Below, piece after piece: positions 3,001-34,227 of a DNA stretch of 37,314 nt. The notes beneath the pieces are model-generated. The model was not told the origin of the DNA. It searched no databases and saw only the letters and a list, made by a program, of their open reading frames with translations. Both the position numbers and the translations under genes were made by a program. This DNA comes from Candidatus Jacksonbacteria bacterium (GTDB lineage: Bacteria > Patescibacteriota > Patescibacteriia > UBA9629 > GWA2-43-13): assembly GCA_018698735.1 (NCBI GenBank), contig JABIPD010000035.1, positions 1-37,314 of the forward strand, written 5' to 3'. The first letter of the stretch is position 1, and each line of letters starts with the position of its first letter.

Positions 3001-4265
3001 CCAGTCTGAGGATATCCAAGAGTTCCACTTGCTCCTCCGGTATTATGAGTACTGTTATTAAAGTCAGCGATTTTCCAGGATGCACCACTTTTCACGCCTC
3101 GATATCCTGTTGTGTTATAGCCACCATCTGGGTCAGATTCATAATCAGCCCAATAAATAAGTGCCTGGCTCCCGCTTGCTGTTGCTTCATGGGTTGCAAA
3201 ACTATCTCCATTTCCATACGCTTCTGCATCTATTATTTGCTCTGATACACTTCGTAACCCCTCCCAAAGTTGTAAATCTGCATAATCACCACCGTTATCT
3301 ATACCAATACAGGTGTGTTGACCATCGTTTAAATTACTGTGGCCTGCAGATGTTGCTCCACCGGTTCTAAAGGTTTGTGCGATTGTATCGACGTATAGCT
3401 TATAGCGAGAGGTTCCACTATTATAGTCATATTGAAGAGAAAGATAATACCATTTTGAAGTATCACTTAACGGCGTGCCGGCTGTAGTATCTAAAGAGCC
3501 ACCTGCGTCGTCATATACCGTTAAAGAGCCATCTGCATTATATCCAAAGAAATCCCATGTTGAGCCGGATGAGCTACATGTGCCTGTGTTATAAATAAGA
3601 CTCGCTCCACTTGAAGGAGGTTTAAACCAAAGCTCATAGGTGTGGTCGTCTTGTATGGCATCTCCGTCGGTGCTCGTTGAAAATCCTTCATCATATTCGC
3701 TATACGACGTGTGCCACATCCCTTCATCGGCACCGTCCAACGCAGTCATATAATTTCCAAGATCTGTGGAGGCTGCTGAAATTGCTGCTAGTTGAACTTT
3801 TGCAGAATCTCCAGAGCCAGAAACTTCAGTATTTGAATCGGTTCCAGCATCGAAACTCGTATCATTCGTTTCTGTTGTTGATGAAGATCCTCCTGCGCTT
3901 CCTTCGAGCTGAACCTTCGCAGAATCGCCAGATCCACTTACCTCCGTGCTCGAGTCGGTACCGGCATCAAAACTGGTATCATTCGTCTCTGTTGTTGAGG
4001 CTGCTGTTAAAGTTATTGTAAGATCTGTTGACTCGGTTACTTCAGATGATTCGCTTGTGTATTCATCCCAGCCAGTTCTGTTATTGGTATGATCTGCGTT
4101 GTTTGCAGTGACTCCAGTTGCCCAAGTTGTCTGAAGCCATGTATACGATGCTCCGCCTTGGCCAACATCCCAAAAAGACGCAATCAATACCATTGCTCCA
4201 AAAACAAATAACCCGCCTATTATAAATACGCTAATAGTATGTCTCATCTTCTGTGAAATAGGCAT
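1..4265 (-). CDS. Giant membrane-anchored/secreted surface protein, C-terminal end beyond the left window edge (>1420 codons). Contains a TM anchor, a 2 x 39-aa repeat, a LamG/ConA-like module, and two arrays (5 and 6) of 52-aa beta-propeller-type blades
   Basis: Absent from the ORF track because there is no stop inside the window. Hand translation of the minus strand from ATG 4265 (alt ATG 4247) gives MPISQKMRHTISVFIIGGLFVFGAMVLIASFW... The same frame was checked at 3719 (MWHTSYSEYDEGF), 3059 (NNSTHNTGGASG), 2339 (MYITGSWTNTVFQYTLSTAWDVSTASYDSKSF), 1739 (CTDITSGEDISGNGCVTD), 1319 (STASYASKSLDVSGQGGSP), 599 (AGGETINSTHTD) and 5 (..GTAVMRILAD). The listed minus ORFs here are in another frame, and the plus ORFs are antisense shadows of the blade repeat. 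Confidence 0.85.
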   Translation of the reverse strand, partial: MPISQKMRHTISVFIIGGLFVFGAMVLIASFWDVGQGGASYTWLQTTWATGVTANNADHTNNRTGWDEYTSESSEVTESTDLTITLTAASTTETNDTSFDAGTDSSTEVSGSGDSAKVQLEGSAGGSSSTTETNDTSFDAGTDSNTEVSGSGDSAKVQLAAISAASTDLGNYMTALDGADEGMWHTSYSEYDEGFSTSTDGDAIQDDHTYELWFKPPSSGASLIYNTGTCSSSGSTWDFFGYNADGSLTVYDDAGGSLDTTAGTPLSDTSKWYYLSLQYDYNSGTSRYKLYVDTIAQTFRTGGATSAGHSNLNDGQHTCIGIDNGGDYADLQLWEGLRSVSEQIIDAEAYGNGDSFATHEATASGSQALIYWADYESDPDGGYNTTGYRGVKSGASWKIADFNNSTHNTGGASGTLGYPQTGTFTSQIIDTTGNSTFDNVSWNSTDVAGSTISVRVRSDSAANMSGATAFASCTDIISGEDVTSNACVTDTDQYVQYEVRLGGAWNVGSAAYDGVTSPDVSAEEDFVTGVFFKPDGTKMYLVGRDGDDVHQYSLSAAWDVSTASYDSKSKNVNSEEASPLTLSFKPDGTTMYVVGYSDDEVEQYTLSTPWDVSTASYDSKNFSVTDEEGSPFGLFFKPDGTKMYITGSWTNTVFQYTLSTAWDVSTASYDSKSFDASSEEGSVNGLSFKPDGTKMYVVGVNTDDVEQYTLSTAWDVSTASYDSLFFDVNSEEATPSGLFFKPDGTKFYTIGVGDLVYQYSLATNANKVSSTSLDDIIINYSSATTYSTTGIFTSQILDTTVNSVYGIASWNTTDASTTTVSVKVRTDSAANMSGATAFTDTSCTDITSGEDISGNGCVTDTDRYVQYQVSLGSNWYVSTGVYDSKASPSLNSQDTTPGALSFSLDGSKLYVLGQNSDTVYQYTVSTPWDASTASYASKSFLPTTQETTPEGLFFSLDGTKMYIAGTSSDAVYQYALSSAWDVSTASYASKSLDVSGQGGSPSALFFKPDGTKMYRLDNGSLRIKQYSLSTAWDISTGSYDSKDFAASSQEGLPRDFEFKQDGTKLYIVGSNEDTVYQYTLSTPWDVSTASYDTISFAVSEESTLYSIFIKPDGTKFYAVGQGNDTVYQYSFASNANNAGTSTLDDITINYSGYSTSEQNLISSAFDTESSGVLLTQMAWTETLPSGADVKFQLRTAPDSTGSPGTWTDWLGPTSTGDYYTDSAGGETINSTHTDSTDDQWYQYKVFLNSDGTVTPTLSDLTITYVVNVAPVVSNVTASQNSAGVVTVGYDFADSDEATGTISVYYQLAGVTLNETLTDSDTGAVTLSTATNFPASGKILIDSEIIDYSGNDGTDLTIVERGYDTSNAAAHSSGAAVYMLAVTVGGDAGASITTGTSKSATWTAKTDKDGFYGTAVMRILAD

Positions 4266-4387: not shown

Positions 4388-5074
4388 TTATTTTGTTTTG
4401 CCAAAAACTCCCTTCCCCACAATAATTTCTTGTAAAACTCGAGCCATTCGAGATACCGAGCCTTCGGATTTTTGTTTTGTATATTCTGTATAAAGAATGG
4501 TAACCGGAACCTCTTTATACCGAAGATTATGACGAACAACTTCTTCTATAATTTCTGAAGCATGCGCCATTCTACTCTGCTTGATAGTTATTTTTTTCGC
4601 GGCATGAGAAGTAAATGCTCGAAACCCATTATGAACATCTGTAAGATTTAACCCTGTTAGCAATCGCATAAACAAAAGAGAAGCCTTTAAAGATGCCCAC
4701 CTGAATTTAGTCATATTTTCTACTGCGCCTAAGAATCGAGAGCCTAAGACAACATCTACCTCGTTTTGAACTAAAGCCTCTATAAACAATGCTATTTCCT
4801 CTGATTTATGCTGGCCATCGGCATCAAATGTTACAACAATATCTGCGCTAAGCGTAAGGGCGTAATCTATCCCCGTTGCAAGCGCTGCACCTTGCCCCCT
4901 GTTTATATAATGCCGAAGAACATGCGCTTTTGTTTTTTGAGCAAACCTATGAGTACTATCGTGAGAACAATCGTCTACCACCACCACCTCGTACCCACAA
5001 CAAAGAACTTCCTCAACAACTGACTTTATAATCTTCGCTTCGTTAAATGCAGGTATAACAACAACTATTTTCAT
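4388..5074 (-). CDS. GT2 family glycosyltransferase, polyprenyl-phosphate sugar transferase-like (DPM1/ArnC/GtrB type)
   Basis: ORF 4388..5095. Internal ATG 5074 (MKIVVVIPAFNE) lies 1 nt after the ugd stop. Motifs VVVDDCSHDST and TFDADGQH (DxD) are present. Confidence 0.85.
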   Translation of the reverse strand: MKIVVVIPAFNEAKIIKSVVEEVLCCGYEVVVVDDCSHDSTHRFAQKTKAHVLRHYINRGQGAALATGIDYALTLSADIVVTFDADGQHKSEEIALFIEALVQNEVDVVLGSRFLGAVENMTKFRWASLKASLLFMRLLTGLNLTDVHNGFRAFTSHAAKKITIKQSRMAHASEIIEEVVRHNLRYKEVPVTILYTEYTKQKSEGSVSRMARVLQEIIVGKGVFGKTK

Positions 5075-5075
5075 A

Positions 5076-6341
5076 TTACAATCTTCCAATTCCAATATAA
5101 TTCCAGCCTATACTCTTCATTCCCTCTTTGTCTAAAAGATTTTTTGCATCTACAATGACCGGAGTAGATACTATCGATTTCAGCTTAGCCCAATCATACT
5201 CTTTAAATTCTTCCCATTCTGTGGCAATCACCACGCATTCAGAATCTTCTATGCATTCTTCAACTGTATCTGTTGCCTCTGGCAGATTCCGTACTTCAGG
5301 ATCATACGCCTTTACAACAGCCCCCTGGGCCTTTAATTTTTCTATCAAATAAATAGCTGGAGATTCTCGAGTGTCATCGGTATCTCCCTTAAACGCGATT
5401 CCTAGTATAGCTATCTTTTCACCTTTAACACCAACTTTACATGCCTCTATAATTTTTTTTAAAACAAATTCTCTTTGAGTATTGTTTACTTCTATCGTCG
5501 CCCTTAAAAGTTGAAACGTATAATCGTTCTCGCCTGCCAATGAAGAAAGAGCTCTTACATCTTTCGGAAAACAACTGCCACCATAGCCTATACCGGCTTT
5601 TAAAAATTCTTTTCCTATACGAGGATCGAGCCCAATGCCAGTAGCTATATCGTCTACATCTGCGCTAATTTCTTCACATACACGGGCTACTTCGTTTATA
5701 AAAGAGATTTTTGTAGCCAAAAATGCATTAGCAGCATACTTGGTAAGCTCTGAGCTTTCCCACTGCATTGGAACTTTGGGGCAATCCCATATATTGAGCA
5801 ATTCTTCCAATACTTGATTATTCTTCCCATCTTCTGTGCCTAATACAATTCTATCTGGATTTTTAAAATCCGAAACCGCCTTTCCTTCTCTTAAAAACTC
5901 TGGTAATGAAACAACTTCAAAACCATTACCAAGTTTTTCTTTTGCCTTTCTGGCTGTACCCACAGGAACGGTTGATTTGTTTATTACGAACACACCCCCT
6001 GGCCCCCTCTTAATAGAGGGGGAAGATTTAGTTGTCTGCTTTATTTGATCTATCACATGCCAATAAGCCTTCATGTCTGGAGCTCCGTCCTCCAGCGGGG
6101 GAGTACCAACACAAACAATATATACATCCGCCCTTTCGAGCAGAGAAGTGAATATCAGCTTCTCTTTATTTTTCTGCACAAGCTCTTTTAACCCAGGTTC
6201 GTAGAATGGCACTTCTCCCCTCTTAAGACTTTCAATTTTTTCCGTATTAACATCTACACACGTAATATCAAAACCAGCGTCCGCAAAACACACGCCTGTT
6301 ACAAGTCCAACATAACCTGTTCCTATAATGGCAATATTCAT
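5076..6341 (-). CDS. ugd: UDP-glucose 6-dehydrogenase (nucleotide-sugar dehydrogenase family)
   Basis: ORF 5076..6377. The likely start is ATG 6341 (MNIAIIGTGYVGLVTG Rossmann motif). The catalytic-Cys signature GYGGSCFPKD is present. Confidence 0.9.
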   Translation of the reverse strand: MNIAIIGTGYVGLVTGVCFADAGFDITCVDVNTEKIESLKRGEVPFYEPGLKELVQKNKEKLIFTSLLERADVYIVCVGTPPLEDGAPDMKAYWHVIDQIKQTTKSSPSIKRGPGGVFVINKSTVPVGTARKAKEKLGNGFEVVSLPEFLREGKAVSDFKNPDRIVLGTEDGKNNQVLEELLNIWDCPKVPMQWESSELTKYAANAFLATKISFINEVARVCEEISADVDDIATGIGLDPRIGKEFLKAGIGYGGSCFPKDVRALSSLAGENDYTFQLLRATIEVNNTQREFVLKKIIEACKVGVKGEKIAILGIAFKGDTDDTRESPAIYLIEKLKAQGAVVKAYDPEVRNLPEATDTVEECIEDSECVVIATEWEEFKEYDWAKLKSIVSTPVIVDAKNLLDKEGMKSIGWNYIGIGRL

Positions 6342-6407
6342 AAACAAATATTCACAAAGCTCTAAAACATTGGACATTACATTTTGTATTTCTTTAGAGT
6401 TTAGGGT

Positions 6408-7330: not shown

Positions 7331-7370
7331 AGTAATCCCGAATATACAAATCAAGTACAAATATACGAAT
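7331..7370 (-). promoter_or_regulatory. 40-bp promoter-bearing arm, copy A (TCGTAT-N16-TATATT), 12 nt from ATG 7328
   Basis: Minus strand reads attcgtatatttgtacttgatttgtatattcgggattact. It is 35/39 identical to copy D2. Confidence 0.55.
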
Positions 7371-8540: not shown

Positions 8541-8579
8541 AGTAGTCACGAATATACAAATTTAAACAAATATACAAAT
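8541..8579 (-). promoter_or_regulatory. Promoter-bearing arm, copy B (TTGTAT-N15-TATATT), 12 nt from ATG 8538
   Basis: Minus strand reads atttgtatatttgtttaaatttgtatattcgtgactact, followed by ct and then the ATG. Confidence 0.55.
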
Positions 8580-8998: not shown

Positions 8999-9039
8999 CT
9001 ATTTGTATATTTGAACTTGATTTGTATATTCGCGATTAG
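8999..9039 (+). promoter_or_regulatory. Promoter-bearing arm, copy C. It points antisense into the 3' end of the S8 gene
   Basis: ctatttgtatatttgaacttgatttgtatattcgcgattag is 37/40 identical to D2 and ends directly at the S8 stop codon (9040-9042). Confidence 0.4.
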
Positions 9040-11377: not shown

Positions 11378-11965
11378 TTATTTTTGATAATACTTATCCT
11401 GTGGCCATTTTATTGGGTTCATACCAATATATTCACGATGGTTTTTAAGATCTTCGTCGTTACGAATAATATGGTCATAAAATCGTGGTTGCCATTGGAA
11501 TGATGATCCGTGATTAGCGCGAATTTGTTTGGTTGAAACAATTTTTATTTGTTTAATAATATCACCAAGAGTCGATCTGTAGAGACGCTTTGGTAAAGCG
11601 TCTTCTTGTTTTTGTTGATCAAGACGCATCACCGATGCGTCTCTACGATCGGACATATTTCGTTCGGTATTCATCGGTAAAACATCATCATACGGACCAA
11701 TATGAATAATAACATGTACATGATTCGGCATAACAACAAAACTATCAATCAAAATATTCGTTCTTACCTCTTCTGTCTTTTTGATTTCCTTTTCAACAAT
11801 CTCACCGACCTCAGTCAGTACTACTTCATCGTCAATTATATTTGATAAAACACATTTCATATCCTTCACACACCATGTGACAAAGTAAAATCCTTCAGAC
11901 GAATAATCATAATGCTGATATCGAGAAGAATTAACTTTATAGGTATTTTTGTATAATTCAGACAT
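11378..11965 (-). CDS. rayT: REP-associated tyrosine transposase-like protein (RAYT, IS200-like Y1 HUH), paralogue 1
   Basis: HUH motif MPNHVHVIIHI and Tyr motif WQPRFYDHIIRNDEDL..YIGMNPIKW. An extended -10 (TGaTAATAT, 11980-11972) lies 6 nt from the ATG. Confidence 0.85.
   Translation of the reverse strand: MSELYKNTYKVNSSRYQHYDYSSEGFYFVTWCVKDMKCVLSNIIDDEVVLTEVGEIVEKEIKKTEEVRTNILIDSFVVMPNHVHVIIHIGPYDDVLPMNTERNMSDRRDASVMRLDQQKQEDALPKRLYRSTLGDIIKQIKIVSTKQIRANHGSSFQWQPRFYDHIIRNDEDLKNHREYIGMNPIKWPQDKYYQK
11579..11646. repeat. GTAG-REP doublet (REPIN-like) inside the RAYT1 coding sequence
   Basis: gtagagacgctttggtaaagcgtct, a 17-bp spacer, then aagacgcatcaccgatgcgtctctac. It is read in frame as RRDASVMRLDQQKQEDALPKRLY. 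Confidence 0.8.
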
Positions 11966-11982
11966 GAATACATATTATCAAT

Positions 11983-12050
11983 GTAGCGACTCTTTGGTAA
12001 AGCGCCTCCTTGCTTTTGTTAATAAAGACGCATCACCGATGCGTCTCTAC
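11983..12050. repeat. GTAG-REP doublet, intergenic copy 18 bp upstream of the RAYT1 ATG
   Basis: The left arm is degenerate (gtagcgactctttggtaaagcgcct). The right arm is identical to the in-ORF copies, and the spacer is similar to that of the RAYT1 in-ORF copy. Confidence 0.75.
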
Positions 12051-12064
12051 AAAAAACACAGATG

Positions 12065-12097
12065 AAATAAACGGCTCATCGTGTGAGCCGTTTATTT
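12065..12097. terminator. Bidirectional hairpin/terminator after the TPR gene, upstream of RAYT1
   Basis: 14-bp stem aaataaacggctca / tgagccgtttattt with a 5-nt loop. A near-identical hairpin lies at 22161-22195. Confidence 0.6.
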
Positions 12098-12109
12098 TTA
12101 CTGCCTCTT

Positions 12110-12914: not shown

Positions 12915-12970
12915 AAGACGTCTCTACAAGGCACTAACTTTTTTCTGTAGAGACGTATTGCATACGTCTT
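12915..12970. repeat. GTAG-REP pair, head-to-head variant
   Basis: aagacgtctctac (12915-12927), a 19-bp spacer, then gtagagacgtattgcatacgtctt (12947-12970). Confidence 0.65.
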
Positions 12971-13002
12971 GTTTTTGCACATTAAGAACAATAAACTCCC
13001 CC

Positions 13003-13061
13003 GCCTGCCGAGGCCTGGCACTGGCGGGCAGGCCCCTACCCCCTCTTAAGCAAAGAGGGGG
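13003..13061. repeat. GC-rich REP-like hairpins (CCCCCTCT / AGAGGGGG family)
   Basis: Stems gcctgcc / ggcaggc (13003-13033) and ccccctct / agaggggg (13039-13061). The same hairpin type occurs at 34147-34169, with a degenerate copy at ~12811-12850. Confidence 0.6.
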
Positions 13062-13159: not shown

Positions 13160-16100
13160 TTATCTGCTCAATACTTGAGTAGATGTTGGCAAGTTCTTAA
13201 CCTTTAGACCATTGGTCCAGTCAGTTGTGTTAGACGAGTGACTTTGGTCTGAAACGTCTGACCATACGAATGTTGCTGCTGCAGCAACTCCGCCTGTGAC
13301 AGGAAGGTTAATATCTGTTTCACCTGCGGCAACAGTAGAACTGACTGCATATCCATCTGTAGTTACTGTAATGGTATATGTAATATTCTTACTTGCTGAA
13401 TCGCTATAAGCCTCAGCTGTAGTATTGTCACCAGCTGTTGGAGCAACTCTGATAAGACTATCGGTACTATCTGTACATTCAATGAATCGTACAGTTTCGA
13501 TACCTTCACTAACAGCAACAACAGTTGTACCGTTGGCTGCATACATAACACAGGTTGCACCACCGTCAATATGTGTTCCAGTTACAGCTACAACGTCATT
13601 ACTGCCGTCAGAAGCCACAACAATAGTTTGCCCAGTGGTTACGCCAAATCCTTTTGTGATAAGACCATTACCTTCACCTGTAGTAAAGGCAGCGCTTGTA
13701 CTTCCAGCAACTGTCATTGAGTCTTGAGCTGTCAAACGGATGTCGTTTGCTGTAACAGTTGCACCTGCATCTGTGTCAGCGTAGTACACTGCTGAGTTTG
13801 TGTTAATCGGGAACGCAGCAGTCTGAGCAGCGAATGCTGAAGGCTGTGTGATTTGAACAGTGAGGTTGTCTCCAGCTGCTGGAGCACCGGCAATAGTAAC
13901 ACGCAATTCGTAGGTCTTAGAACCGCTAATTTGCTGTTCTGCGTCTGCTACGAAGTGGATTGCACCAGCTGTGTCGTTATCATCTTCAACACTTCCAGTA
14001 AACACGCCTGAACCAGCAATCTCGTTGTTATCTGAATCCCAGAGAGTTGGAGAGGCTAATGTGTCTGTACCACTAATACTCTTGGTTACCGTAAACAGTA
14101 ACTTCTGCCATGCAATAGTTCCTGTTCCATTTGTACCAACTGTAAACTTAGATACAACTTGTGTTCCAGTGTTAAGCACTGTTGTAGGTAATGTTACATT
14201 TGTAATGGTAGGAACAGCCTTGTACACGTACATTACATTACCAGGAGGGTTTGCTTGTGTTTCTGTAACAGCAGCAGAAGTACCTTGTGAGTTACGTGCA
14301 GTAGCAGCGGTAACAGTTGTAAGGACAGAAGCAGCAGAAGTACCTGCGCCAAATCCTACAGCACTTAACTGAAGCTCGATATCTATAACTTTTGTAGTGT
14401 TTGCAGCTACAGCAATAGAGACATCGTTAAAGCTTAAGTCTGTTGCAGGCTGAGTAGCAACAACAGTAGAGCCATCCTTAAGGATAACATTTGATACAGC
14501 GGTTGTGTCAGCAAGAGTTACAGTAATGTCTGTAATAGTGTAAGAGTCATTTGTAGTAGTAAACTTCCATGAACCTGTTTTCACGGTTCCTGAATCGTCT
14601 ACTAACTGTGAGGTAGGTGTTGAAGCGTCGATGTCAACAGCAATAGTTGCGGTACCAATTGTAATGGTTTGACCAGCAATAACACCTGTATCTGCTGATT
14701 GAGCAGAAGCTACGGTTGTACCAGTAACCTGTAAAGATGCGACTACAGTATCTGTAGCAACAAAGTCAGATCCGAGAGAACCATATACTTCAACAGCTAT
14801 CGATTCGTTCTTTGCAATGGTAATACTTGGAGACCAAGTATTAGTAGCAGCAGTGACAGATGATTTTACAGCAACTTGGCTATCGCCATACTTGATCCAC
14901 ACATCTGTTACGTCTGTTACATCTGCAGTTCCTACAACAGCAACATCTAAGTCGAAGGAAGTTACATTAATAGCCTCAGTTGAATCACCAGAGAGTTGGA
15001 ATGAAGCAATCTTAAGCGCAGTAATTGGATCCACAACTGTCTGATTAGGATAGTTTGTAGTTTTTGCCATTGCTAGTGAACCAGATGAAATAGTTAAACT
15101 ATTTGCAGCCTGGGTAGCTGATGGAACGTTAATTCCAGTAATAGACACAGCTGGAACAGCGTTTGCGCTTCCAAGTACTAAAGCAGCTTGAAGAGCAGTT
15201 ACTGCTGCGCTTGCAATCTGGTCTGTATCTTCGTTGTCGTACATATCTGCACGAGCTTCGATAGTTACAGTAGTACCCGATTTAACGGTGTAGTTTGTAG
15301 TAAAGCTTGTACCACTAGCATAGCTGTTTACAGCTGGAATAGTAGTAGTAGAACCTGCTTGTACTCCGTCGAACATAACACGACCGCTTCGGAAGCTAAC
15401 TTCTGAATCTGTAGCACCAGTTACATCGATACCAACTGTTAAGGTTTCAATTTTAATATCTTCACCATAAGCAGTTACGTCCCATGTTCCTAATACTGCA
15501 TCGGATGCTCCTAGAACTAAGTTAGCTGAAGGAGAATCTGCTCGTTTAACAACAGTTGTTGTCCCTGCGTTAACGGTAAATGCACTAGGACCAAATGGGA
15601 ATGTTCCAGTAGCGAGTACACCTACACCATAAGAAGAGTCAGTTACATCGATATCATAAGCTCCTCGAAGAGATAATCGAACAGTTCTACCTGAACCGCC
15701 TGTTACGTCTCCAATAACTTTAAGTGTTCGAGCACCTGTCTTTAAGTCGGTGTTTGTTGCGAAAGTAACATAACCGTTAGCATCGAGGCTATCGGTTGAT
15801 GCAATTTCTACTCCATCTGCAAGAAGTCGGAAGTTTCCGATATCTGCTGTTTTGATAGAACCAATCTGGCGTAATGCTAAACGAGTCAATGATACTGTTC
15901 GTTGAGCAATAGTAGAAGTACCCTGCCATAAAGTAATATCAACTCCTGGGTCTGTATTACCAGAACCAGTTGCAGAACTTAATGCATTGGTTGCAAGTGT
16001 TGCAGTTGCAACGCTATGTAACGCACCGTTTACTGGGAATGTACCAGAAACAGTGTCTCCTGTGTCGTTTGTAGTAATGTCGCTTGCAGAAACAATGCTC

Positions 16101-17657: not shown

Positions 17658-17763
17658 ATCGCTAATATACGAATCAGAAACGAATATACAAATAAACTAA
17701 TTTTTCATGATTTCCAGAGCTTCTATTTGTATATTTGTGCTTGATTTGTATATTCGTGATTAG
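17655..17763. mobile_element. Gene-less 109-bp MITE-like unit: arms D1 (17655-17694, minus) and D2 (17724-17763, plus) back to back with a 29-bp filler
   Basis: Read on the minus strand, D1 is tatttgtatattcgtttctgattcgtatattagcgattag. D2 is tatttgtatatttgtgcttgatttgtatattcgtgattag. The two are 33/40 identical as inverted repeats, and each carries an outward-reading TTGTAT-N16-TATATT. Confidence 0.5.
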
Positions 17764-19931: not shown

Positions 19932-20058
19932 ACTAAAACCTTACGCGGTAACGTATTTCCTCATAATAACCCATTTTAGTATATCATACACCCTAAAAGC
20001 AACATGGCGAATCATCTCGTTTTCAATACAAAGACTCGAGAGAGTGTGCCATTTTTTT

Positions 20059-20125
20059 GTAGAGACGCCTTGGTAAAGCGTCTTATTTTGAGATATTTCA
20101 AGACGCATCACCGATGCGTCTCTAC
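20059..20125. repeat. GTAG-REP doublet, intergenic copy between lexA and the sigma gene
   Basis: gtagagacgccttggtaaagcgtct, a 16-bp spacer, then aagacgcatcaccgatgcgtctctac. The right arm is identical to the other three copies. Confidence 0.8.
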
Positions 20126-20137
20126 AGAAGACAATAT

Positions 20138-20799: not shown

Positions 20800-20916
20800 G
20801 TAGTCGCTAATATACAAATAGATCACAAATATACAAATTCGAGTAAATATATGAACAAGAAAGTAACCCTGCTTTCAATTTGTATATTTGTGCTTGATTC
20901 GTATATTCGAGAACAG
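20800..20916. mobile_element. Gene-less 117-bp MITE-like unit: arms E1 (20800-20839, minus, 13 nt from the lexA ATG) and E2 (20877-20916, plus) with a 37-bp filler
   Basis: Read on the minus strand, E1 is aatttgtatatttgtgatctatttgtatattagcgactac. E2 is aatttgtatatttgtgcttgattcgtatattcgagaacag. Confidence 0.5.
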
Positions 20917-21587: not shown

Positions 21588-22145
21588 TTATTTAAAATAT
21601 TTGTCCTGAGACCATTTTATTGGGTTGATTCCGATATAATCACGATGGGACTGAAGGTCATGATCGTTACGGATGATATGATCATAAAATCGTGACTGCC
21701 ACTGAAAGGAAGGATTGTGATTGTTACGAATTTGTTTTGTTGAGACAATTTTTATTTGTTTGATAATATTACCAAGATTTGCCGTGTAGAGACGCTTTGG
21801 TAAAGCGTCTCCTTTTTTTTGATTATTAAGACGCATCACCGATGCGTCTCTACAGGAAGAGTCGAACATAGGACCTATATGAATAATAACATGCACGTGA
21901 TTTGGCATCACAACAAAAGAATCTACACGAACATTTTTTCTCACCTCTTCTGTTTTTTTAATCTCTTTTTCAACAATCTCTCCAATTAAACTTAATACTA
22001 TTTTATCATCCACAACCTTAGACAACACGCAGTTCATATTTTTTACACACCATGTTACAAAATAGAACCCCTCAGAAGAATAGTCATACTGGGAATAACG
22101 AGCCGATGGGATTCGGTATTGGTTATTGTATAGAAATTGATTCAT
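21588..22145 (-). CDS. rayT: REP-associated tyrosine transposase-like protein (RAYT), paralogue 2
   Basis: Same motifs as paralogue 1 (MPNHVHVIIHI, WQSRFYDHIIRNDHDL). A perfect extended -10 (TGtTATAAT, 22160-22152) lies 6 nt from the ATG. Confidence 0.85.
   Translation of the reverse strand: MNQFLYNNQYRIPSARYSQYDYSSEGFYFVTWCVKNMNCVLSKVVDDKIVLSLIGEIVEKEIKKTEEVRKNVRVDSFVVMPNHVHVIIHIGPMFDSSCRDASVMRLNNQKKGDALPKRLYTANLGNIIKQIKIVSTKQIRNNHNPSFQWQSRFYDHIIRNDHDLQSHRDYIGINPIKWSQDKYFK
21786..21853. repeat. GTAG-REP doublet inside the RAYT2 coding sequence
   Basis: Both arms are identical (25/25 and 26/26) to the RAYT1 in-ORF copy, while the spacer differs. It is read as CRDASVMRLNNQKKGDALPKRLY. Confidence 0.8.
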
Positions 22146-22160
22146 ATTTTTATTATAACA

Positions 22161-22195
22161 AAAATAAACGGCTCATATCGTGAGCCGTTTATTTT
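22161..22195. terminator. Hairpin/terminator after the 3376-aa gene, abutting the RAYT2 promoter
   Basis: 15-bp stem aaaataaacggctca / tgagccgtttatttt. It is near-identical to 12065-12097. Confidence 0.6.
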
Positions 22196-22211
22196 ATTAC
22201 TAACTTCCCAC

Positions 22212-22272
22212 GTAGAAACGAGGTCCCCAGACACATTTCTCGCATGGTCGGGGCACGTAACCCCGTTTCTAC
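22212..22272. repeat. GTAG-REP doublet, GTAGAAACG variant
   Basis: gtagaaacg (22212-22220) pairs with cgtttctac (22264-22272). An inner hairpin cggggcacgtaaccccg lies at 22249-22265. Confidence 0.6.
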
Positions 22273-33931: not shown

Positions 33932-34170
33932 TCCCTCCTTCGAGGGACAGGCTCTGTCTTTTGATCGTCATCCCCGACCCCGATCGGGGATCCATGCTCT
34001 TTTTATTTCTTCAGCCTATTGGATTCCTCTGCCCTTTGTCCGTCATCCTCAGCTTGACTGGGGATCCATGTGCTTCTTTCATGAGGCCATGGATTCCCGA
34101 TCGGGGTCGGGAATGACTGCAAAGGAATTTTTTCTTTCGTTTTATCCCCCCTCTTTGCATAAGAGGGGGT
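33932..34170. repeat. Cluster of REP-like hairpin elements
   Basis: Three copies of cgtcat(c/t)cc..ggg(g/a)atccatg lie at 33966-33995 and 34041-34070 (direct) and 34088-34117 (inverted), with a core palindrome ccccgatcgggg. Two further hairpins lie at 33933-33946 (ccctc/gaggg) and 34147-34169 (ccccctctt/aagaggggg). Confidence 0.75.
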
Positions 34171-34227
34171 TAGGGGGAGTTTTGCCCGTCATCGTCATGG
34201 TTATTGTCATCATGCCTTTCTGCCCGT

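Follow-up and report, generated by a model that had tools for sequence, protein, structure and literature searches.

The window analysed here, i.e. the whole stretch of 37,314 nucleotides (nt) of Candidatus Jacksonbacteria (Patescibacteria) DNA, carries two paralogous genes for REP-associated tyrosine transposases (RAYTs), each of which contains an inverted pair of repetitive extragenic palindromes (REPs) within its own open reading frame (ORF). Taken together, these elements most probably form a REPtron of subclass 2.4/Group 4, with the cognate double-foot doublet in frame in the RAYT genes, the DNA hairpins maintained and the encoded peptide a mere passenger; a probability of about 72% is given to this reading. 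The identity of the genes, the structure of the doublets, the conservation of the palindrome as DNA throughout the family and its co-variation between genomes are established by the comparisons presented below.

TnpA-Y1 subclass 2.4 was defined by Quentin, Siguier, Chandler and Fichant in 2018 (BMC Genomics 19:475, PMC6006769) and corresponds to Group 4 of Bertels et al. 2017. Its members display the motifs NH[IFV]H, WQ and YIxNNP, have a median size of 194 amino acid residues (aa) and occur in Cyanobacteria, Bacteroidetes and various other phyla, their hallmark being the presence of in-frame 'double foot' REPs between HuH and Y, in a variable region that was judged a peripheral extension with probably little effect on activity (PMC6006769). 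Di Nocera et al. 2013 (PMC3733652) compiled REPs that reside in frame in genes of other kinds. The arrangement seen in the window, of which the original prediction knew no description, is thus already known, and the sighting is ordinary for the subfamily, since in-frame REPs in tnpA-REP genes were reported in 2018. What this case adds is the patescibacterial host, the doublet form of the in-gene element and its presence in two paralogues. Among the papers listed by a literature search, none mentions REPs together with Patescibacteria or the Candidate Phyla Radiation (CPR).

The two genes are located 10 kb apart, the second one having been absent from the original prediction:

11378 to 11965, minus strand: RAYT1 (RAYT paralogue 1), 195 aa, with the HuH motif NHVH at residues 81-84, WQ at 158-159 and YIGMNP at 179-184.
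21588 to 22145, minus strand: RAYT2 (RAYT paralogue 2), 185 aa, with 71% aa identity to RAYT1.

The assignment of RAYT1 to the RAYTs, made originally from its motifs, is confirmed by a match to Pfam PF01797 (Y1_Tnp) at 27.8 bits, above the cutoff of 23 bits, and by the fold of an AlphaFold2 model built from 40 homologues. The top Foldseek match of this model is 4ER8_A, the E. coli TnpA-REP bound to its REP (E 1.8e-7, probability 1.00), followed by the TnpA proteins of IS608 and ISDra2, and an hmmsearch of the PDB retrieved 4er8_A at E 3.1e-10. Among the NCBIfam models, REP_Tyr_transpos is the best one, its alignment being broken in two by the insert. As for the features of subclass 2.4, both paralogues have the HuH motif as PNHVHVII, followed in the RAYT1 ORF translation by FQWQPRFYDHIIR...EYIGMNPIKW; the W motif reads FQWQPRFYDH and FQWQSRFYDH in the two proteins, and WQPRFWEH of 4ER8 aligns with it. 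The class-2 signature Y---NP is present in both (YIGMNP and YIGINP), their sizes of 195 and 185 aa compare with the subclass median of about 194 aa, and the HuH strand is followed, as in the subclass, by a variable insertion. The Tyr motif was assigned by alignment to 4ER8 and by Table 1 of PMC6006769: RFYDHIIR, originally proposed for this role, belongs to the WQ region, the catalytic Tyr being that of YIGMNP. The position predicted for the insert, between HuH and Y, is unaffected by this correction.

The mean predicted local distance difference test (pLDDT) of the RAYT1 model is 83.5, with a core above 90, while it falls below 50 for residues 98-125, i.e. for the part encoded by the REPs and its neighbourhood. 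The low-confidence loop as a whole spans residues c. 90-130, between the strand 82-89 and the helix 133-152. According to this model, the REP-encoded peptide lies in a disordered, variable loop that links the HuH strand to the helix after it.

Four REP doublets, named c1 to c4 and sharing one orientation, were found in the window; c4 was also absent from the original prediction:

11578 to 11647, minus strand: c1, in-frame doublet of RAYT1, encoding residues c. 107-129 (RRDASVMRLDQQKQEDALPKRLY).
11982 to 12051, minus strand: c2, extragenic doublet, with the terminator hairpin of the upstream gene on one side and the RAYT1 ATG on the other.
21785 to 21854, minus strand: c3, in-frame doublet of RAYT2 (CRDASVMRLNNQKKGDALPKRLY), both arms identical to those of c1, spacer 12/17.
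20058 to 20126, minus strand: c4, extragenic doublet of 68 nt in the spacer between lexA and a sigma factor gene, with an unrelated spacer and 1 mismatch in REP-b.

On the coding strand, c1 consists of REP-a GTAGAGACGCATCGGTGATGCGTCTT, an A-rich spacer of 17 nt and REP-b AGACGCTTTACCAAAGCGTCTCTACA; read on the plus strand, it gives GTAGAGACGCTTTGGTAAAGCGTCT at 11579-11603, the 17-nt spacer and AAGACGCATCACCGATGCGTCTCTAC at 11621-11646. The doublet is 69 nt long, both of its hairpins are GTAG-footed, and it is translated in the frame cGT AGA GAC... into RRDASVMRL-DQQKQE-DALPKRLY. The general layout is GTAGAGACGC-loop-GCGTCT, spacer, AGACGC-loop-GCGTCTCTAC, i.e. of the 'double-foot' type, and the hairpins grouped with REP-a and REP-b have the foot GTAGAGACG. 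A GTAG-headed hairpin doublet inside the RAYT ORF had been predicted, and its coordinates and its in-frame reading both hold. The patterns of 25-26 nt for the two hairpins were each matched 4 times in the window, vs. 0.00 expected (100 shuffles). Similarly, there are 9 REP feet for 1.25 expected, and 4 doublets in 37 kb for 0 expected. The second doublet announced at the 5' end of RAYT1 is also there (11982-12050), 17 nt before the ATG; compared to c1, c2 has one identical arm, 3 mismatches in REP-b and 13/17 identical positions in the spacer.

When folded as single-stranded DNA (ssDNA), the doublets form one long or two short hairpins, at -19 to -23 kcal/mol (z about -6.3). At minimum free energy, c1 and c4 each adopt one long hairpin (-23.2 and -19.4 kcal/mol, respectively; z about -6.4), whereas c3 adopts two (-19.8 kcal/mol). 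The doublets therefore fit the definition of a REPIN, an inverted REP pair with a short spacer that is able to form one long hairpin, and the original reading of the inverted GTAG pair as such stands, folding into one long hairpin being the behaviour that defines REPINs. An Rfam scan of the whole window gave no family at gathering score, which indicates that the doublet is not a known structured RNA.

The comparison of the two paralogues provides a first argument for the upkeep of the hairpins. Between RAYT1 and RAYT2, the hairpin arms (two of 26 nt) are identical at 52 of 52 positions, vs. 12/17 for the spacer and 73.5% for the coding flanks, where third codon positions are only 54% identical. 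At the flank rate, the probability of such arm identity is P about 1.5e-7. The arms being identical despite diverged flanks and spacer, they must have been held constant or homogenised. Furthermore, spacer similarity among c1, c2 and c3 (12-13/17) indicates that these doublets share ancestry as units.

A second argument comes from the family as a whole, for which 80 homologous loci from many phyla were examined at the DNA level. In an alignment of 40 homologous proteins, the peptides RRDAMHCVST, VETHCNASL and VETSxxGVST occupy the same place; they are two-frame translations of one palindrome, GTAGAGACGC..GCGTCTCTAC. The same 28-mer, GTAGAGACGTTGCATGCAACGTCTCTAC, encodes RRDVACNVST in metagenome-assembled genomes (MAGs) of Chlorobiota and Gammaproteobacteria, and VETLHATSL in those of Sphingobacteriaceae and Piscirickettsiaceae. 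A perfect in-gene GT[AG]G...C[TC]AC palindrome, its stem measuring 8 bp or more and typically 12-14 bp, is present in 42 of the 80 genes; its GTAG is in codon phase 0 in 29 of them and in phase 1 in 13, while the phase that reads TAG is found in none. The segment between HuH and WQ, which varies from 32 to 119 aa, contains a perfect stem of at least 10 bp in 37 of 59 genes, vs. 0 of 59 for an N-terminal (upstream) control segment of equal length.

Among 23 aligned 28-nt palindromes, 99.6% of the cells are paired and compensatory changes have occurred in 7 of the 12 pairs. The doubly changed cells number 51, vs. 13 +/- 2.9 in shuffles (0/500); in this set the outer 8 pairs were the selection criterion, and the inner four pairs, which were unselected, are the most variable. 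Both the use of two frames and the compensatory changes in the stems imply that DNA (or RNA), and not peptide, is conserved: on this comparative evidence, the palindrome is maintained as nucleic acid and the peptide is not. Homologues with the same peptide encoded by non-palindromic codons would have spoken against the original prediction; what they do instead is keep the palindrome and differ in peptide. Concerning the other loci, doublets resembling c1 to c4 are also present at L005, L023, L025, L053, L068 and L076, and at 21 of 41 loci the in-gene arm recurs exactly somewhere outside the RAYT gene.

The third argument is provided by sister genomes. Those named L081, L082 and L083 are syntenic with the window, with LexA proteins 91% identical; the LexA protein of the window itself matches one of a Candidatus Jacksonbacteria MAG at 100% identity. 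In the RAYT1 orthologue of L081, a lone REP, GTAGAGACGGGGTTAACCCCGTCTCTAC, is read in the other frame (VETGLTPSL), and a REP of the same type (27/28) is located upstream of the ATG of this gene; GTAGAGACGGGGTTAACCCCGTCTCTAC also occurs unchanged at two further sites nearby, including an in-frame one in ugd. Both the in-ORF and the upstream REPs thus differ in type between the window and L081, which is the co-variation that the original prediction had proposed to look for: the in-ORF REP co-varies with the REP set of each genome. As for RAYT2, it is missing from L081, L082 and L083 and syntenic in the relatives L084 and L085, where the inner stems of its in-gene doublets differ again. The segment 21588-22272, which comprises RAYT2, its upstream terminator-like hairpin and an element starting with GTAGAAACG (see below), is missing at L081:270-420, where a REP-like terminator is found instead. 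Since this segment is missing from L081 and syntenic in L084 and L085, the RAYT gene shows a presence/absence polymorphism in the clade.

The extragenic REPs are also variable, their positions differing between the window and L081. The c4 doublet is absent from the orthologous lexA-sigma spacer of L081; for this spacer and for that between the sigma factor and DUF5667 genes, the REP is present in one genome only and the surrounding spacer cannot be aligned. No clean empty insertion site was found in the comparisons of the window with its sister genomes. An extra doublet of L082 and L083 was considered as a clean insertion and rejected, because L081, in spite of the strains being about 99.5% identical, retains at 4141-4160 a 20-nt internally deleted remnant, with both feet lost, of the doublet found at L082:4484-4548. 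Doublets can thus be lost by deletion between their arms.

The in-frame REP of the L081 ugd (UDP-glucose dehydrogenase) gene, at 16050-16077, is also translated as VETGLTPSL. At the same site, the orthologue in the window (5076-6377) has TGTAAAGTTGGTGTTAA, 13/17 identical to the left half of the L081 REP, which may represent a proto-site or else a REP with one half deleted. A clean insertion of 30 nt was rejected for this case too, as the half-site of the window is similar at 13/17 and the direction of the change is ambiguous.

A metagenome scan for the exact REP-a hairpin, GTAGAGACGCATCGGTGATGCGTCT, retrieved four contigs (L086-L089), otherwise unrelated to the window, each of which joins it to a different partner REP. 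From their sequences, REP halves seem to have been recombined into different doublets in different genomes.

Under the preferred reading, the enzyme would be an HUH/Y1 single-strand DNA nuclease-ligase which, by analogy with the Group 2 and 3 enzymes, may recognise the GTAG foot together with the hairpin in ssDNA; we infer that it binds and cuts the doublet hairpins. In Groups 2 and 3, the cleaved dinucleotide is CT or CA and GTAG serves as the guide (PMC8266576), and a CT dinucleotide stands directly 5' of GTAG at one end in three of the four doublets. One doublet resides in frame in the disordered loop of each paralogue, and the others lie upstream of RAYT1 and elsewhere between genes. Only two reading frames, neither of which reads TAG as a stop, can persist in such a position, and the family uses both; the encoded peptide would be a passenger. 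The in-gene copies behave as live members of the REP population and are not decaying relics, a conclusion to which their arms, constant at the nucleotide level and changing with the other REPs of the genome, point. The process that keeps the hairpins uniform would be either selection for RAYT recognition or a homogenisation, RAYT-driven or recombinational.

Several results weigh against this reading. The two paralogues score 71.0 and 66.9 bits with the NCBIfam model NF047646 (REP_Tyr_transpos) and do not reach its equivalog cutoff of 80, and their Y motif has M or I at position 4, where the published consensus of subclass 2.4, YIxNNP, has N. RAYT biochemistry is confined to Groups 2 and 3 (PMC8266576). 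Within +/-10 kb, the in-gene arm was seen as a single copy at about half of the loci surveyed. The in-gene REPs of 41 loci are not significantly more intact than the extragenic ones (93% vs. 78% with a stem of at least 8 bp, p = 0.14), in a test biased by the choice of loci. Finally, in four assemblies of the genome, 99.98-99.995% identical over window positions 10187-30795 (20.6 kb), the doublets are identical, none having been gained or lost, and there is thus no sign of ongoing mobility.

An alternative, which the original prediction had raised in the form of autoregulation or self-targeting, is that the in-gene REP is a cis-element kept by selection, through which the RAYT would act on its own gene or message. 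It could then serve for autoregulation via a hairpin in ssDNA or mRNA, slow down translation by its structure, or be a protected master seeding the extragenic REPs. We regard this explanation as unlikely, although it is compatible with the data: it would explain why a palindrome read in two frames is found at the same gene position across many phyla regardless of peptide, why the arms of the paralogues are identical beside diverged spacer and flanks, and why in-ORF and upstream REPs have switched type together between sister genomes. Also in its favour, the in-gene copies of the window and of L081 are perfect while those upstream of the ATG are mismatched, and the in-gene arm stands alone within +/-10 kb at about half of the loci. 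On the other hand, extragenic REPs with the same foot are, at the 41 loci, about as intact as the in-gene ones; in 7 of the 59 homologues, the segment between HuH and WQ lacks any perfect stem of 8 bp or more, which means that the gene can do without one; and the presence of a REP of the same family in frame in an unrelated gene, the ugd of L081, implies that in-frame residence needs no special function. The loop was also considered peripheral to the active site by the authors who described it (PMC6006769). It is doubtful that the in-gene REP is an obligatory cis-element of the subclass 2.4 RAYT genes, be it as an autoregulatory handle or as a master copy reseeding the REPs of the genome. Were the hairpin such a regulatory element or master copy, this would explain the long-term match of a domesticated transposase with its repeat family, RAYT-repeat matching over long periods being an open question in REPIN/RAYT biology.

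The original description of the subclass leaned towards a harmless insertion, while the comparative numbers obtained here (two frames, compensatory stems, constant arms and coupled REP switch) point to a conserved nucleic-acid hairpin and not to a conserved peptide. A REP or REPIN that landed in a permissive loop and is tolerated there, its sequence being unmaintained, would fit with the disorder and variable length of this loop, with the lack of peptide conservation, with the intragenic REPs known in many genes (PMC3733652) and with the decay of a doublet by internal deletion in L081 vs. L082. However, neutral divergence of the arms should have matched that of their surroundings, and yet they are fully identical between paralogues; across phyla, stems of 12-14 bp remain perfect and show compensatory changes; and orthologues have differing REP types, each matching the REPs of its own genome, which requires turnover or conversion. 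Given this contrast between arms and flanks and the coupled switch in REP type, a purely neutral passenger is disfavoured and appears very improbable. Next to no credit can be given to the last two explanations, i.e. that the extragenic doublets are decayed fragments of RAYT genes or that selection acts on the peptide RRDA...VST and the palindrome only follows from it. Nothing was found in their favour, the kinship of the c1, c2 and c3 spacers showing only a shared ancestry as units. The similarity of c2 and c4 to the RAYT genes stops exactly at TGTAG...CTACA and the c4 spacer is unrelated, so that these copies are not gene fragments; had they been such, the original prediction would have counted as refuted. 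In addition, one DNA palindrome read in two frames gives unrelated peptides. Both candidates were rejected on these grounds.

Among known systems, the subclass 2.4 REPtrons are the closest, with the same motifs (NH[IFV]H and WQ), a similar size (about 194 aa), a variable insertion that follows the HuH strand, double-foot GT[AG]G...C[TC]AC REPs both flanking the gene and in frame between HuH and Y, and few gene copies, which are diverged within a genome. The present case differs from them by its patescibacterial (CPR) host, by its Y motif (YIGMNP or YIGINP instead of YIxNNP), by an in-gene element that is a full inverted REPIN-like doublet of 69 nt and not a single palindrome, and by the occurrence of such a doublet in each of two paralogues 10 kb apart. 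The E. coli TnpA-REP of Group 2 (4ER8; Messing 2012, Ton-Hoang 2012, Corneloup 2021) shares the HUH/Y1 fold and the GTAG foot 5' of the hairpin; REP pairs flank its gene as well, and the CT found here 5' of GTAG matches a known cleavage dinucleotide (PMC8266576). In contrast, the E. coli gene has no REP inside, its REPs are single-footed with a bulged stem, and the two proteins have 24% identity over the structural alignment.

The Pseudomonas REPINs (Bertels & Rainey 2011) likewise consist of two REPs in opposite orientation around a short spacer, can form one long hairpin and accompany a RAYT, but they are extragenic and go with Group 3 RAYTs, and the abundance of the present doublets is known for 37 kb. 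The Rickettsia palindromic elements (RPEs) and the intragenic GTAG/CGTC REPs of Di Nocera et al. 2013 are also short in-frame palindromic repeats, adding 10-30 residues to surface loops; however, they occupy sporadic sites in unrelated housekeeping genes, whereas the host gene here encodes the presumed repeat-processing enzyme and the site is conserved family-wide. Finally, the TnpA proteins of the IS200/IS605 insertion sequences (ISs) have in common the fold, the chemistry and the recognition of ssDNA hairpins, but the hairpins of these ISs are subterminal and bound the mobile unit, the motif is Y---Q, and many identical copies are present.

Besides the four doublets, other hairpins and REP-related elements were found next to the RAYT genes:

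12062 to 12099, minus strand: terminator-like hairpin AAATAAACGGCTCAC..GTGAGCCGTTTATTT, downstream of a TPR gene.
22160 to 22197: copy of this terminator-like hairpin, upstream of RAYT2.
22212 to 22272: a different double-foot element, GTAGAAACG...CGTTTCTAC, 61 nt, with the stop of a 3376-aa gene on one side and RAYT2 on the other.
12947 to 12970, plus strand: GTAGAGACGTATTGCATACGTCTT, a single REP with a foot of the same family, located upstream of the TPR gene.
12916 to 12927, minus strand: REP remnant GTAGAGACGTCT, near GTAGAGACGTATTGCATACGTCTT.

The terminator-like hairpin recurs not only upstream of RAYT2 but also at the orthologous site of L081. The promoter and terminator scans gave consensus matches only, namely a -35-like TTTACC hexamer in the c2 loop and, on the antisense strand, a terminator-like hairpin, and were not relied on. 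The 61-nt element has an outer stem of 9 bp and an ssDNA fold of -16.5 kcal/mol (z -3.9), and is perhaps a decayed doublet or a REP of a second type. The sequence GTAGAGACGTATTGCATACGTCTT is also present in L081, at position 4520, in a non-orthologous place.

Three other kinds of repeats were observed in the window. Diverged 156-nt (52-codon) repeats, with 60-72% identity, occupy positions 985-2701, in a coding region that continues beyond the left end of the window; at score 80, Tandem Repeats Finder reported nothing there. G+C-rich palindromes, standing out in this A+T-rich genome and recurring at distant sites, are located at 13000-13061, 33967-34117 and 34147-34175 (e.g. CCCCCTCTTTGCTTAAGAGGGGG and GTCATCCCCGACCCCGATCGGGGATCCATG). 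Lastly, a second, unrelated repeat family, AATATACAAAT, has 18 matches in the window vs. 1.7 expected, at 7341-7370, 8551-8579, 9001-9030, 17664-17754 and 20809-20907. These repeats are intergenic, including immediately upstream of lexA, and are arranged in direct pairs, 18-19 nt from start to start, as well as in inverted pairs, which gives the family an operator- or promoter-like look.

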